Source: Pseudobdellovibrionaceae bacterium (GTDB lineage: Bacteria; Bdellovibrionota; Bdellovibrionia; Bdellovibrionales; JAMPXM01). Taken from it: 64,000 bases of DNA. The notes beneath the pieces were generated by a model. That model had not been told where the DNA came from, ran no database searches, and was given only the letters and a program-made list of their open reading frames with translations. The stretch lies in contig CANHQR010000014.1 of assembly GCA_947462815.1 (NCBI GenBank), positions 800 through 64,799 on the forward strand, in the 5' to 3' direction. Shown here piece after piece: positions 27,532 through 47,192 of the stretch. The position numbers and the translations under genes are program-made. The first letter of the stretch is position 1; each line of letters opens with the position of its first letter.

Positions 27532-27888
27532 TTATTTTTTCGAATTTTGGCTTTGGCCTTCGACGATTTCTTGGCCCGAGTGTTTGCGCCAATCGTAGTC
27601 TTTGCTCGCTCGGAGACGATCGTCCCAAGCTTTCCACTTCTGCTCGCTGAACTTATGCAGCACACGGCCTTGGGCATCGAAGATCGCCGGGTCCTTGCCA
27701 AACAAGAAGTCGAATAAAAAGGCAAGCGGCCCGCCCACGCGTCGCCGGAACATGGCTCCCGAAAAGCCGACTCGCGAGTAAGTTCGGCTCTGCGCCGCCA
27801 ACTGCGCGGCACCAAGTGGTGTTGCAGCCGTCGAACGGCCGTCGCCCAAAGGTTGATTCAACAAGTCGGGTCGATCATTGCGATCCAT
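27532..27888 (-). CDS. hypothetical protein
   Basis: ATG 27888 is preceded by GAGGGAG. It is a 118-aa protein with no recognised motif. Confidence 0.35.
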   Translation of the reverse strand: MDRNDRPDLLNQPLGDGRSTAATPLGAAQLAAQSRTYSRVGFSGAMFRRRVGGPLAFLFDFLFGKDPAIFDAQGRVLHKFSEQKWKAWDDRLRASKDYDWRKHSGQEIVEGQSQNSKK

Positions 27889-27935
27889 GTTCACTCCCTC
27901 TAAAGCTCTCGCAAACGCTAACATGGAGTCGATCG

Positions 27936-28619
27936 ATGGAGAAGGGCTTTGGCGCGGGACAAATTGAGCTTAAACACTACGCAGAGTCAGTTTTCCGTCC
28001 CGTGGATTCGGCGCTGGAACGTATCGGGCAAAGTATTGCGAGCTCGGGACTTCCTCAAATTCAGGTCGGACCTATGGACGGGCGGCATTTAGAAGTCTTG
28101 TCCCGGGCCTTAGCGCCCTCGACGATTGTGGAGATCGGGACCCTGGGCGGCTACTCCGGCCTTTGTCTTATGCGCGGCATTCGGCCCGGGGGCGAGTTTC
28201 ATGGCTACGAGAAGTCAGCGGCTCATGCCGAGCTGACAAGGCGGAATCTGCAGATCGCCAAAGAGCAAGAGGGACTTCAGGTCTCCATCCACATTCAAGA
28301 AGGCGAAGCCCTCAAGGCCCTAGCGCAATGGCCGAGAGACCGACGCGTCGATTTGGTGTTTATTGACGCGGACAAAGTCAGCTACTCCGCTTATCTCGAT
28401 TGGGCGGCTCAGCATTTACGCGTGGGCGGGGTGGTCTTGGGTGATAACACGTTTGGGTGGGGTGACGTGGTTCGCGTGCCGGAGTTGATCGGCCAGGCTC
28501 GAGATACGGTCGGGGCCCTGGATCAGTTCAATAGAAAGTTGGCGGCTGATTCTCGATTTCTCAGCACAATCTGGCCCACGGCTGAGGGCCTCACGATGGG
28601 TGTTAAGGTTCGCGATTGA
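27936..28619 (+). CDS. class I SAM-dependent O-methyltransferase (caffeoyl-CoA OMT/YrrM-like)
   Basis: The motifs are IVEIGTLGGYSGLCL, DLVFIDADKVSY and LRVGGVVLGDNTF. Confidence 0.8.
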   Translation: MEKGFGAGQIELKHYAESVFRPVDSALERIGQSIASSGLPQIQVGPMDGRHLEVLSRALAPSTIVEIGTLGGYSGLCLMRGIRPGGEFHGYEKSAAHAELTRRNLQIAKEQEGLQVSIHIQEGEALKALAQWPRDRRVDLVFIDADKVSYSAYLDWAAQHLRVGGVVLGDNTFGWGDVVRVPELIGQARDTVGALDQFNRKLAADSRFLSTIWPTAEGLTMGVKVRD

Positions 28620-28782
28620 ACGCTCACAAGGTGGGCCACTTGATTGTGCTCACGCGAACTCACTTCATGGCCCCAGTAGGTCCGGCGCTGTTTCGAGTCT
28701 CAAAAAAAGTAGTTTAAGTAAATAAAATCATTTGTGATTTAAACTTCCCAAGCACAATCAAAGGGCCCAGTTCGCAAAGGCC

Positions 28783-29007
28783 CTAGCGCAAATCGGTGTC
28801 GAGGCCGAAGACGGCGTAGAACATCCGCAGCGCAAAACCCAGAGAGGCAAGCCCGAATATAGCTCCGGCCATTTTCAGATCGGCGGCGACTTCACTGGCG
28901 AGACCAAGTTGTACTTGCATGTCGAAAGCACTGCCGAGGCCGATCAGTCCTGCGATCATGAGGGCGCAAGCGCCTATAAAAAAAGTGATTCGGCTAATGA
29001 GGTTCAT
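28783..29007 (-). CDS. small 2-TM membrane protein (74 aa)
   Basis: ATG 29007 has GGGAG 8 nt upstream. There are two hydrophobic helices (ITFFIGACALMIAGLIGLG and GAIFGLASLGFALRMFYAVFG). Confidence 0.45.
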   Translation of the reverse strand: MNLISRITFFIGACALMIAGLIGLGSAFDMQVQLGLASEVAADLKMAGAIFGLASLGFALRMFYAVFGLDTDLR

Positions 29008-29023
29008 GTCTGTACTCCCGGTT

Positions 29024-29077
29024 TGAATCTTGAATCTTGAATCTTGAGTCTTGAGTCTTGAATCTTGAGTCTTGAAG
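29024..29077. repeat. tandem heptamer array (TGARTCT)x7 plus a partial unit
   Basis: Read directly: TGAATCT x3, TGAGTCT x2, TGAATCT, TGAGTCT, then TGAAG. The array lies 17-70 nt upstream of the 74-aa gene start on the minus strand. Confidence 0.95.
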
Positions 29078-29120
29078 CGGAAGCTGAGCGTCTTTTTAAG
29101 TGAGGGTCTTGTTAATAGAG

Positions 29121-29134
29121 AGACTCAGGACTCA
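29121..29134. repeat. two inverted heptamer units (AGACTCA GGACTCA) complementary to the array
   Basis: The reverse complement TGAGTCCTGAGTCT matches array positions 29045-29058 at 13 of 14 positions. It overlaps the stop codon (29125-29127) of the upstream small gene. Confidence 0.8.
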
Positions 29135-29430
29135 CAACGTAAATTGGCGCAGGTGTCGATGATGTCGAGGCCCGAGGACTCGTCCGGAGATCGGCCTGTT
29201 TTGGATTGATGAAGACGTGAGTGGCGTTCGAAGCACTGTGTCGCGGCGTCTTCAAAAGCCGCATCCGCGGATCGGCCTTTACCGATGATTACGCCGACAT
29301 CTGTCGTTTCAACGCGACAAGTGCTTTTGCCTCGCGCCGCTTGTGCGGGCGAAGCGCCCATCAGAATGACGGCCGTGCTGAAGAGAAGAGCGCCCAAAAC
29401 CAAGGCTTTTGAGCTTGAAGTCTTGTTCAT
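29125..29430 (-). CDS. small secreted 4-Cys protein (101 aa precursor)
   Basis: ATG 29430 is preceded by GAGGA. The Sec signal is MNKTSSSKALVLGALLFSTAVILMGASPAQA. The mature part, about 70 aa, has 4 Cys. Confidence 0.45.
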   Translation of the reverse strand: MNKTSSSKALVLGALLFSTAVILMGASPAQAARGKSTCRVETTDVGVIIGKGRSADAAFEDAATQCFERHSRLHQSKTGRSPDESSGLDIIDTCANLRCES

Positions 29431-29607
29431 AGATTCATCCTCGCTTTTCAATGGGACATGGCGATCTATGCCTTTGAGCCCCTCATGTTGAGCCCATGAT
29501 GTTGAGCTCATGCCCTTGAAACAGAGCAGGGCTCAGGCCATCCGAGAACGAAGTATTGCGATTTGACCGGGGCTTGGTTGAGGATGTGAACAAAGGAGGC
29601 CTAACAG

Positions 29608-30333
29608 GTGTCAAAGGCTTCGACAGTGGAGCATCGCGAACGTCCTCTGGAATTGGCTGAGGCCTATGGCGCTTACCCCCAGCTCTGGGCGCAGCGTCCG
29701 CATTGGCCTGAGGCCCTCAGTGATGATTTGAACCTGAACTGCAGCCATTGCCGCATGACGAAAGTTGCCGAGAGCCGGCAAGCGAGCCTCTCGGTTTGGC
29801 CGAGACGTGATTGGGGCCCCTTTCTGAACTCCGTCAAGTGCTGCGCGCATCAGCCTCACTGGCCGAATTTCCTGATCGGCGCTGCCATCGAAAGCTCGGC
29901 GGGCGAGGCTGCGATTCTTATTGAAAATCTACTCATCCGTTCTCAATTGTTCGTGTGGGGGGCTCGACCCTCCAGGGAACGTCGTTTAGCGGAAGCTCGG
30001 TCCGGGCAATGCGGTTATGGGCGTGCGGCGGCTTTGGCTTGCCCACTTCTGAGCTCAAGCGGGCAGTGTTCGGTATGGCAGTTTCGGCCAGGGACTTGTG
30101 TGACTTATGTGTGTCAGTCGGCGCGTGGCGCTCAGGGTTTGTCGGCTTGGCGCGAATACGAATTGAAGCTTGTGGCTTGGGAGTCGGAGCTGGCTCATCA
30201 ACTCGCTTGGCAATTGGGTTACACCAACGATGACTTGGCTATGAAACTGACGTTCACCGAGGCCAGGGACTTCTATTTGAAGTGTCACGGACTTTTGAGC
30301 TCGGGTTGGCGGCCTGAGTTTGAAGTTGTATGA
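29608..30333 (+). CDS. YkgJ-family-like cysteine-cluster protein
   Basis: The Cys pattern is CSHC...KCC followed by ACPLLSSSGQCSVWQFRPGTCVTYVC. This resembles the CxxCxxCC / C-x-IY-x-RP-x-C zinc/iron-chelating family (PF03692-like). It has a GTG start. Confidence 0.5.
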   Translation: MSKASTVEHRERPLELAEAYGAYPQLWAQRPHWPEALSDDLNLNCSHCRMTKVAESRQASLSVWPRRDWGPFLNSVKCCAHQPHWPNFLIGAAIESSAGEAAILIENLLIRSQLFVWGARPSRERRLAEARSGQCGYGRAAALACPLLSSSGQCSVWQFRPGTCVTYVCQSARGAQGLSAWREYELKLVAWESELAHQLAWQLGYTNDDLAMKLTFTEARDFYLKCHGLLSSGWRPEFEVV

Positions 30334-31937: not shown

Positions 31938-31982
31938 CAGAATCCGGCCAATTAGAATCCGGCCAATTAGAATCCGGGCGGA
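31938..31982. repeat. 3 tandem 15-bp units spanning the stop codon of the 335-aa gene
   Basis: On the plus strand the units are CAGAATCCGGCCAAT, TAGAATCCGGCCAAT and TAGAATCCGGGCGGA. On the coding strand this reads GGA TTC TAA / TTG GCC GGA TTC TAA / TTG GCC GGA TTC TGA, giving three in-frame stops 15 nt apart. Confidence 0.9.
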
Positions 31983-34975: not shown

Positions 34976-35055
34976 CGTGGTCCACTTGTCTTCAAGATGT
35001 CTCGTCGGGTTCCGTCTCAAAGGTCCATCTCACAGATCCACCTTAAAGATCCGAC

Positions 35056-35763
35056 TTAAAGATCTACAGTGACGTGAATTCGATGTGTGTCATCGTTGTC
35101 GTCGAGCAGAGCAATGAATTCCATGACTTCCTTTTTTTGCGCGTCCGAGAGTTCCGTATAATTCTTCGGTTTGTAGCTGAGTTCAGCCGTCGAAACTTTG
35201 AAGCCACGGGCGACCAAAGCGGTCTCGATGGTCTTCAAATCTTCGGGAGCACCGTAGAATCCGTACTTATCCTCACCCAAATTTTGAACGTCGCTGGCGC
35301 CAGCCTCAATTGCTTCTTCCTCGGGATCCTTGACGCCCGGCTTTGTACCTTCCAACAAGCAAACGCGATCAAACATCCAAGCCACGGAACCTTCGGCCCC
35401 GAGTGCGCCGCCATTTTTGTTGAATACATTTCGAATTTCGCTGGCGGTTCGATTGCGATTGTCGGTTTGGCACTCGACGATCACGCCCACCTTGTGGGGG
35501 CCATAGCCCTCATAGGCCAACTCTTCGATTTGCGAGGCGTCGTCCAAAAGGCCCGCGCCCTTTTTTATAGCGCGCTCAATGGTGTCCTTGGGGCAGGCCT
35601 TTTCTCGGGCCGCTTCAACGGCCATGCGAAGCCGAGAGTTGGCCGCGGGGTCAGGTCCGCCCAATTTGGCGGCGACCTGAATCTCGCGCGCGAGTTTTGT
35701 GAAGATGGCACCTTTTTTTGCGGCATTCGCCGCCATCATTGGATTCTTCCAGCTTTTACCCAT
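35056..35763 (-). CDS. YebC/PmpR-family transcriptional regulator
   Basis: From ATG 35763 the sequence is MGKSWKNPMMAANAAKKGAIFTKLAREIQVAAKLGGPDPAANSRLRMAVEAAREKACPKDTIERAIKKG...YEGYGPHKVGVIVECQTDNRNRT. Confidence 0.9.
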   Translation of the reverse strand: MGKSWKNPMMAANAAKKGAIFTKLAREIQVAAKLGGPDPAANSRLRMAVEAAREKACPKDTIERAIKKGAGLLDDASQIEELAYEGYGPHKVGVIVECQTDNRNRTASEIRNVFNKNGGALGAEGSVAWMFDRVCLLEGTKPGVKDPEEEAIEAGASDVQNLGEDKYGFYGAPEDLKTIETALVARGFKVSTAELSYKPKNYTELSDAQKKEVMEFIALLDDNDDTHRIHVTVDL

Positions 35764-46887: not shown

Positions 46888-47192
46888 TCTGAGACGCCGA
46901 TCGAGCGACGATCTCAAGACCTTCATCGGGTTCGCAAAGGGTTGCGGTGAGATAAAAATGTGAAGCAAAACTCATGTTTCAAATTGAGAAATCGTCTTTA
47001 ACATACTGAAATTCAATGCGAATTTCTTGCTTGGATCTTCGTAGGGCGTCATCGAGTTCGACACTTCATTCGACATTGATCGACAGGATTTGAGATTTGA
47101 ATTTAACAGGCGGCCCTAAGGTGGCGAAGTCTTTGACAGGCCGTGGAGTGGGCTCGACTTGTGGTTCAGTTGGAAACATCCGAACAGACCAC

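Follow-up and report, generated by a model that had tools for sequence, protein, structure and literature searches.

Heptameric simple sequence repeats (SSRs) are over-represented in the intergenic DNA of bacteria, where they also occur inside operons and differ in length among close relatives, and their abundance may reflect a preference in polymerase slippage (PMC4692102). Such heptameric intergenic SSRs have already been described as a class (PMC4692102, PMC4679880, PMC12721329), and one form, found upstream of the hmw1A and hmw2A genes of Haemophilus influenzae, folds into a hairpin of about 10 repeats with a G-rich arm, an RNase III substrate that is conserved in strains with at least 11 repeats (PMC12721329). 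Here we examined an array of the unit TCAAGAY that separates two small open reading frames (ORFs), ORF1 and ORF2, in a 64,000-nucleotide stretch of contig CANHQR010000014.1 (assembly GCA_947462815.1, Pseudobdellovibrionaceae bacterium), hereafter the window. An earlier note on this DNA had recorded no described element with this heptamer, which holds for the exact unit as far as was searched. It is probable that the array is a lineage-specific heptanucleotide SSR, or variable-number tandem repeat (VNTR), that grew by slippage between the two cistrons of a conserved gene pair and is near-neutral in effect.

The array was the top-scoring of 37 tandem repeats reported in the window by Tandem Repeats Finder (period 7, 7.7 copies, 91% matches, score 87). 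On the coding strand it reads (TCAAGAY)x7.7, with the Y position running C, T, C, C, T, T, T, followed by TCAAACC and then by GGGAG, and the distance from the end of the array to the ORF2 ATG is 16 nt. The two-unit heptamer pattern gave 10 matches in the window where 2.28 were expected, and 10 was reached in none of 100 shuffles, so that head-to-tail copies are present in excess of chance. The earlier note's description of seven tandem heptamers ending 16 nt before the start codon was confirmed, and its remaining structural statements, concerning the two ORFs, the spacer, the heptamers and the inverted units, were all found to be correct on re-examination. No other heptamer arrays were found in the 64-kb window, the remaining 14-mer matches being at chance level.

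The ORF1-ORF2 spacer is 117 nt in length. Upstream of the array it contains a 16-nt tandem duplication, each copy of which holds an AAGACnnTCA core related to the heptamer, and its beginning is overlapped by an inverse copy of two heptamer units that covers the last two sense codons of ORF1 (Glu and Ser), its TGA stop and the next 4 nt. A coding role for the array was considered and rejected, as no ORF of at least 30 aa spans it and no in-frame ATG, GTG or TTG extends ORF2 upstream. Consensus scans of both strands of the spacer revealed no internal promoter or terminator, and TTGAAT and TTCAAG hexamers within the array were, by eye, without a matching -10 element at the right spacing. Rfam returned nothing at the gathering threshold for the window and nothing at E<=1 for positions 28550-29650. 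The array was identical in the window and in assemblies of SRR6754087 and ERR3761225, all three being 100% identical across 2.4-8.3 kb with the array included; since these assemblies are independent, the array is not an assembly artefact, though they effectively represent one clone.

Orthologous spacers were compared at five distinct species-level loci (L003-5, L006/7, L008 and L131). The spacer measured 34 nt in L003-5, L008 and L131 (GTCCGAGATTTGATTTCAAACCAGGAGAGTCACA-ATG) and 28 nt in L006/7, none of these carried the repeat, and no period-7 arrays were identified across 11 related loci. The array is thus not conserved at the orthologous position and is, on this comparison, species-specific; absence from orthologous loci was a finding that the earlier note had itself named as speaking against its proposals, and for the array this is what all five loci display. 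The window spacer aligns to those of the relatives at both ends, through ...GTC at the 5' end and GATTCAAACCGGGAG...ATG at the 3' end, with 83 extra nt in between. These extra nucleotides consist of the 16-mer in 1.9 copies followed by the heptamers, both of which are absent from the 28-34-nt spacers of the relatives. The 3' end of the array aligns with ancestral GATTTCAAACCAGGAG, and ancestral GATTTGATTTCAA, already a small stutter, is a plausible seed of the array. In the history that we propose, an ancestral spacer of about 34 nt (GTCCGAGATTTGATTTCAAACCAGGAG...) would have gained 83 nt through nested tandem duplications, first of the 16-mer (x2) and then of the 7-mer (x7.7), with replication slippage as the probable mechanism of growth.

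Enlargement was not confined to this spacer, as four of six local intergenic spacers were longer than those of relatives; tandem repeats with units of 7, 14, 15 and 16 nt are present in three of these, and an inverted-repeat insert in the fourth. The region upstream of ORF1 spans 177 nt, compared with 139-141 nt in L003, L008 and L131 and 169 nt in L006, and it contains a 14-nt tandem repeat that shares part of its length with a 36-nt insertion not present in L003, L008 or L131. Upstream of a gene encoding a 286-aa protein the spacer is 159 nt as opposed to 69 nt in L003, and holds a perfect 15-mer in 2.6 copies (AGAATCCGGCCAATT); a 13-mer in 4.2 copies further along the window likewise lies between genes. 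The spacer between the convergent ORF2 and methyltransferase genes measures 163 nt against 5-13 nt in relatives, and comprises 19-nt inverted arms (pair I1, 89%) around a 100-nt AT-rich loop, with a predicted RNA fold of -56.4 kcal/mol against -43.8 kcal/mol for shuffles (z = -3.4). This 163-nt insert is present as a single copy in the window without an Rfam match, and could be an insertion resembling a miniature inverted-repeat transposable element (MITE) or a bidirectional terminator. The stretch at 28680-28760 had been taken by the earlier note to be the most AT-rich of the window; in 80-nt windows, positions 28687-28766 (GC 0.325) in fact rank second, behind 46949-47028 (0.288). A mobile element of the MITE type was considered and rejected: for the first 48 nt of the spacer, the 163-nt insert and the insert upstream of ORF1 alike, no further copy was found in the window or the related loci. 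Taken together, the enlarged spacers suggest that the intergenic DNA of this species generally grows by tandem duplication, and because the neighbouring spacers are enlarged alike, a mutational explanation is favoured over a designed element specific to this locus.

One further variant of the locus came from metagenomic data. A 2891-nt contig of the Joint Genome Institute (JGI) sample 3300059473 encodes identical 101-aa and 74-aa products, with ORF1 ending at 737 and ORF2 starting at 848, and its spacer of 110 nt is exactly one unit shorter than that of the window, the gap presumably falling within the array. A scan of JGI metagenome contigs aimed at this 110-nt variant gave no exact match to the 5' flank of the array. 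The TCAAGAY unit itself was found to recur widely: arrays of at least four copies were present in at least 120 unrelated metagenome contigs with a GC content of 0.29-0.71, none of which carried the genes or flanks of the window locus, and these arrays (loci L010-L129) run to 4-13 units. As the chance expectation for such a 28-nt pattern is well below one, the unit has been expanded many times independently, presumably by slippage, and is a recurrent microsatellite in many organisms. Many of the contigs originated from a single Arctic marine sample series (Ga0115001), and their TCAAGAY arrays often adjoin arrays of related units such as TCAGGAC, TTAAGAT and CCAAGAC.

The consequences of gaining or losing units at this locus are expected to be small. 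Since the array is non-coding and lies upstream of ORF2's own Shine-Dalgarno sequence (GGGAG, 7 nt before the ATG, with AGGAG at the same site in relatives), such changes cannot cause a frameshift. They would alter the length of an A-rich and largely unstructured leader, together with the number of registers in which it can pair, and nothing else. With ORF1 and ORF2 presumably co-transcribed, the result would be at most a mild, graded effect on the translation of ORF2, or on processing of the messenger RNA, relative to ORF1. The array may tune ORF2 expression, although its effect is most probably nearly neutral. Of the proposals of the earlier note, the slippage-prone repeat is the one that is supported, by an SSR of perfect period that is absent in orthologues and by one spacer that is 7 nt shorter.

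The inverse copy at the end of ORF1 was given closer attention with respect to RNA structure. An inverted-repeat search matched it to the array at 13 of 14 positions at 29045-29058, and at 12 of 14 in two more registers, in agreement with the 13 of 14 positions and the several registers of the earlier note. In partition-function calculations the stop-codon segment paired with the array at a mean probability of 0.79, distributed over registers at 0.77, 0.13 and 0.05, compared with 0.008 for shuffled versions of the segment, 0.22 or less for 94 other 16-mers of ORF1 and 0.02 for the ancestral-type GAGUCCUAAGUCCGAG. Relatives carry GAGTCCTAAGTCC at the site of the inverse copy, which pairs poorly with the array (0.02), and the region of the ORF1 stop reads TGA GTCTC in the window as opposed to TAA GTCCG in relatives. 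The complementarity between stop codon and array is therefore lineage-specific and not ancestral. It could have been selected; alternatively, a template switch on the region of the stop codon could have provided the seed for the C-type units. The 156-nt spacer region as a whole was less stable than its shuffles (-22.8 against -27.0 kcal/mol, z = +1.16), and its centroid structure was almost unpaired. The register-shifting RNA structure suggested by the earlier note thus survives in part: the pairing is strongly predicted in the ensemble, in three registers, but the whole fold is no better than that of shuffled sequences, the complement is not ancestral and accessibility of the ribosome-binding site is flat.

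This last point emerged from modelling of altered unit numbers. Directly after the inverse copy lies GUCUCUC, which is complementary to the ORF2 Shine-Dalgarno sequence. With 0-2 units in the model, GUCUCUC paired with that site and left it unpaired at a probability of about 0-0.05, whilst from at least about 4-5 units up to 12 the unpaired probability was flat at about 0.3. At the present copy number, the loss of one unit is predicted to be without effect.

Several of these observations weigh against a near-neutral SSR. A 14-nt complement is unlikely to arise by chance, to judge from the shuffled control and from the failure of all 94 of the other 16-mers to match it, and its improvement in this lineage could reflect selection for structure. 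In silico, removal of the array is predicted to let GUCUCUC sequester the ORF2 Shine-Dalgarno sequence. As for variability, the 7-nt gap of the 110-nt spacer may fall outside the array, and identity of the array in three assemblies, albeit effectively one clone, indicates that it is not wildly unstable.

A rival explanation is an SSR rheostat comparable to that of hmw, in which the helix between array and stop codon would form in shifting registers and either undergo processing, by RNase III for instance, or titrate the anti-Shine-Dalgarno GUCUCUC, so that the number of units sets the ratio of ORF2 to ORF1. The helix lies far above its shuffled controls, its complement was improved in this lineage, the predicted accessibility of the Shine-Dalgarno sequence rises from near zero as units are added, and a precedent exists in H. 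influenzae hmw1A, where an RNase III-cut hairpin of (ATCTTTC)n makes expression follow repeat number (PMC12721329). We nonetheless regard such a rheostat as unlikely. The long hairpin of many repeats that typifies hmw was not found here, the helix being just 13-14 bp with a mismatch and drawing on two units where hmw has about 10, and the overall fold being no better than shuffles. With accessibility flat, a change from seven to six units would do nothing; the element is missing at every orthologous locus, ORF2 retains a strong Shine-Dalgarno sequence of its own, and ribosomes terminating at the ORF1 stop would melt the helix.

A more elaborate form of RNA control can be derived from the same models, in which a recently evolved three-part switch would be made up of the array, the 14-nt complement and GUCUCUC. 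The array would serve as a decoy, and by holding the complement in one or another register it would leave the ribosome-binding site of ORF2 free. Slippage below about four units would then shut ORF2 off, and melting coupled to termination at ORF1 would modulate the outcome. Although we hold this to be quite improbable, it would, if true, constitute SSR-tuned intercistronic translational control, a relative of hmw born de novo in a lineage of predatory bacteria.

That the array is instead a series of protein-binding sites in the leader, as the earlier note had also considered, was judged very unlikely. Lying 16 nt ahead of a start codon, within a leader that is A-rich and unstructured, the array would suit such a role, and heptamers directly upstream of start codons have been described as a possible translational network (PMC4679880). 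A network is difficult to reconcile with a single array in 64 kb, other 14-mer matches being at chance level, and with the absence of arrays from the loci of relatives. Between the array and the ATG stands a canonical Shine-Dalgarno sequence, an element that the BOGUAY repeats either overlap or take the place of. The unit is without the GGA motif for CsrA, and an array bound as DNA is made less likely by a period of 7 bp, which does not keep step with the turn of the helix.

The two genes flanking the array are genuine by the measure of codon evolution. Against four orthologues, with synonymous divergence saturated (dS 1-2), the ratio of non-synonymous to synonymous substitution (dN/dS) was 0.013-0.051 for mature ORF1 and 0.043-0.095 for ORF2; both are real genes under strong purifying selection, and the lack of conservation that the earlier note had named as fatal to its reading was not observed. 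Relatives of the two proteins are recorded as HRK07328.1 and HRK07327.1, hypothetical proteins of a Pseudobdellovibrionaceae metagenome-assembled genome (MAG) in NCBI.

The N-terminus of ORF1 has the appearance of a Sec-type signal peptide (...LMGASPAQA|ARGK...), with cleavage probably after AQA, leaving a mature domain of about 65 aa with four conserved cysteines (C38, C66, C94 and C99). A longer reading of 128 aa from an ATG at 29511 is available, the 101-aa start being the one backed by a GAGGA Shine-Dalgarno sequence and by homologues, whose identities range from 40 to 88%. A profile search of 1.84 billion representatives retrieved at least 110 clusters (defined at 50% identity) at E<=1e-3, 58 of them at E<=1e-10, and nearly all members are 85-120 aa proteins with a signal peptide. 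They share the motif C-x(7-9)-G-x-G-x5-AFEDAA-x2-CF...ID-x-CAN-x2-C, in which C66 and C94 never vary and C38 and C99 hardly ever do, and all seven genome matches were to Bdellovibrionota MAGs. The AlphaFold2 (AF2) model, a beta-hairpin followed by two helices, had a predicted local distance difference test score (pLDDT) of 85 overall and above 96 in the core. No Pfam or NCBIfam family was matched, nor any PDB fold (best Foldseek E 0.6), and a sequence search of the PDB gave E >= 0.1. Kinship with double-stranded RNA-binding domains (dsRBDs) was considered on the basis of faint matches (PDB profile E 0.1-1; Pfam dsrm in five of 84 members, best E 0.011; a 40-residue Foldseek match to the Dicer dsRBD, E 3.5) and was rejected, these being read as local beta-beta-alpha resemblance and not homology. 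Our best guess is that ORF1 is a periplasmic or secreted small protein, stabilised by disulfides (predicted pairs C38/C99 and C66/C94), with a binding or structural role. This family of secreted 4-Cys domains is well conserved and unnamed, its model is confident and none of its structural relatives has been solved; it may interest researchers of the periplasm of predatory bacteria.

ORF2 is far more restricted in its distribution. Single-sequence and profile searches of 5.8 billion proteins retrieved just two clusters at 90% identity, the profile search giving no distant relatives, and the AF2 model (pLDDT 68) consists of helices at residues 3-34 and 39-73. The fetched flanking DNA of ORF1 loci L009 and L132-L137 does not encode an ORF2 homologue. 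ORF2 is confined to one small clade and is, at best guess, a young accessory membrane protein.

These distributions bear on the reading put forward in the earlier note, with ORF1 as a toxin or bacteriocin that is secreted, ORF2 as the membrane protein conferring immunity and the array as the control of their stoichiometry, which we consider the least probable of the explanations discussed here. The arrangement of a small Sec-exported Cys protein followed, on the same strand, by a small two-helix membrane protein does recall such pairs, and one of 84 ORF1 family members gave a weak match to PF25184 (YxzE-like bacteriocin, E = 0.0039), though a match at this level is expected by chance over 84 scans. 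ORF1 however resides in conserved housekeeping synteny and is without ORF2 at the seven loci just named, and ORF2 is limited to its two clusters. No transporter, protease, export, maturation or mobility genes are adjacent, structural comparison gave no match (Foldseek E >= 0.6), and a dN/dS of 0.01-0.05 with near-identical mature sequences does not fit diversifying evolution. The housekeeping context, the conserved mature sequence and the frequent absence of ORF2, with no bacteriocin, Pfam or PDB match of significance, thus argue against the bacteriocin reading.

In close relatives (L003-L008 and L131) the gene order is SufE, a CxxCxxCC-domain protein, ORF1, ORF2 where present, an O-methyltransferase, a small 'FLFGKDP' protein, MsrP and MsrQ. 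The core of SufE, CxxC protein, ORF1 and methyltransferase is kept in L132, L133 and L135 and in parts in L134, L136 and L137, and the order in L009 is rearranged. In the window, a Cys-rich protein of 241 aa is encoded divergently from ORF1; its only domain match, to PF03692 (CxxCxxCC putative zinc/iron-chelating domain), fell short of the threshold (E 0.03), and its gene is kept beside SufE and ORF1 in L003-L008, L131, L132, L133 and L135. The 'FLFGKDP' protein, small and conserved with the motif GDFLFGKDPxIFDxxGRVxHxFxxxKWKxWxDR, occurs near ORF1 in most of the fetched Bdellovibrionota loci and has no family assigned; in L009 and L134 it lies directly 3' of ORF1, the slot held by ORF2 in the window. 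Positions of the features are collected in Table 1.

Table 1. Positions of genes, repeats and inserts at the ORF1-ORF2 locus and in its surroundings (window coordinates unless another locus is named)
Feature	Position	Strand	Description	Basis
ORF1	29430..29125	minus	101 aa, signal-like N-terminus, 4 Cys	ORF listing
ORF2	29007..28783	minus	74 aa, two hydrophobic helices	ORF listing, AF2
Heptamer array	29023-29076		TCAAGAY units	Tandem Repeats Finder
ORF2 Shine-Dalgarno sequence	29019-29015	minus	GGGAG	
16-nt tandem duplication	29085..29115	minus	1.9 copies (CTTAACAAGACCCTCA / CTTAAAAAGACGCTCA)	Tandem Repeats Finder
Inverse copy of two heptamer units	29121..29134	minus	UGAGUCCUGAGUCU	inverted-repeat pairs I2, I4, I5 at 93/86/86%
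14-nt tandem repeat	29474..29512	minus	2.8 copies (CATGRGCTCAACAT...)	Tandem Repeats Finder
36-nt insertion upstream of ORF1	~29454-29489			
163-nt ORF2-methyltransferase spacer	28620-28782			
Inverted arms of 163-nt insert	28632-28650 / 28751-28769		19 nt	inverted-repeat pair I1
15-mer repeat	31939-31977			
13-mer repeat	35011-35064			
241-aa Cys-rich protein	29608-30333	plus		
'FLFGKDP' small protein	27532-27924	minus		
'FLFGKDP' small protein, L009	4387-4587			
'FLFGKDP' small protein, L133	4022-4243			
'FLFGKDP' small protein, L134	442-639			

Amongst described systems, the array most resembles the heptamers GGGAATC of Xanthomonas, GGGGAYT of Nostoc and the short tandemly repeated repetitive (STRR) heptamers of Calothrix, which are likewise head-to-tail 7-nt intergenic units with cases inside operons (pecE-pecF), are attributed to polymerase slippage, and vary in both length and sequence between close relatives (PMC4692102). 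It differs from these in that TCAAGAY is rich in A and unable to form a G-quadruplex, and in that one array was seen in 64 kb whereas those families have dozens of arrays per genome. The TAACTGA repeats of marine Beggiatoaceae, Cyanobacteria and Bacteroidetes are similar in being forward heptamers placed just before start codons with low predicted structure (PMC4679880). Each genome nevertheless has them at 169 loci, where they extend over the ribosome-binding site (PMC4679880), as opposed to a single locus in 64 kb with a normal Shine-Dalgarno sequence downstream; the many arrays characteristic of TAACTGA and STRR repeats were not seen within the window, and the array neither abuts nor replaces the ribosome-binding site, GGGAG lying between in the window and AGGAG occupying that site in relatives.

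The pflu0185 gene of Pseudomonas fluorescens, a contingency locus that arose de novo, offers a parallel of another kind, as its 7-nt unit (GGTGCCC) is duplicated and lost at a high rate and arose in a single lineage, although that unit lies in coding sequence and acts as a frameshift switch (bioRxiv 10.1101/2024.05.01.592015), whereas the window array is non-coding. With the phase-variable (ATCTTTC)n of H. influenzae hmw1A and hmw2A the array shares the character of a transcribed 7-nt SSR before a start codon, with its complement in the same RNA and without a frameshift (PMC12721329); it departs from hmw in that the complement covers two units (13/14), the array stands between two cistrons, and neither is conserved. 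The array is, in sum, probably one more heptameric intergenic SSR, rather than a novel regulatory element or a switch for a toxin and its immunity protein, in a lineage whose neighbouring spacers also grew by tandem duplication. What the locus adds to these systems is a clean record of before and after, from an intercistronic spacer of 34 nt to one of 117 nt, in which the repeat appears to have created, or to have been seeded by, complementarity to the region of a stop codon, and hence the raw material for RNA switches of the hmw type.

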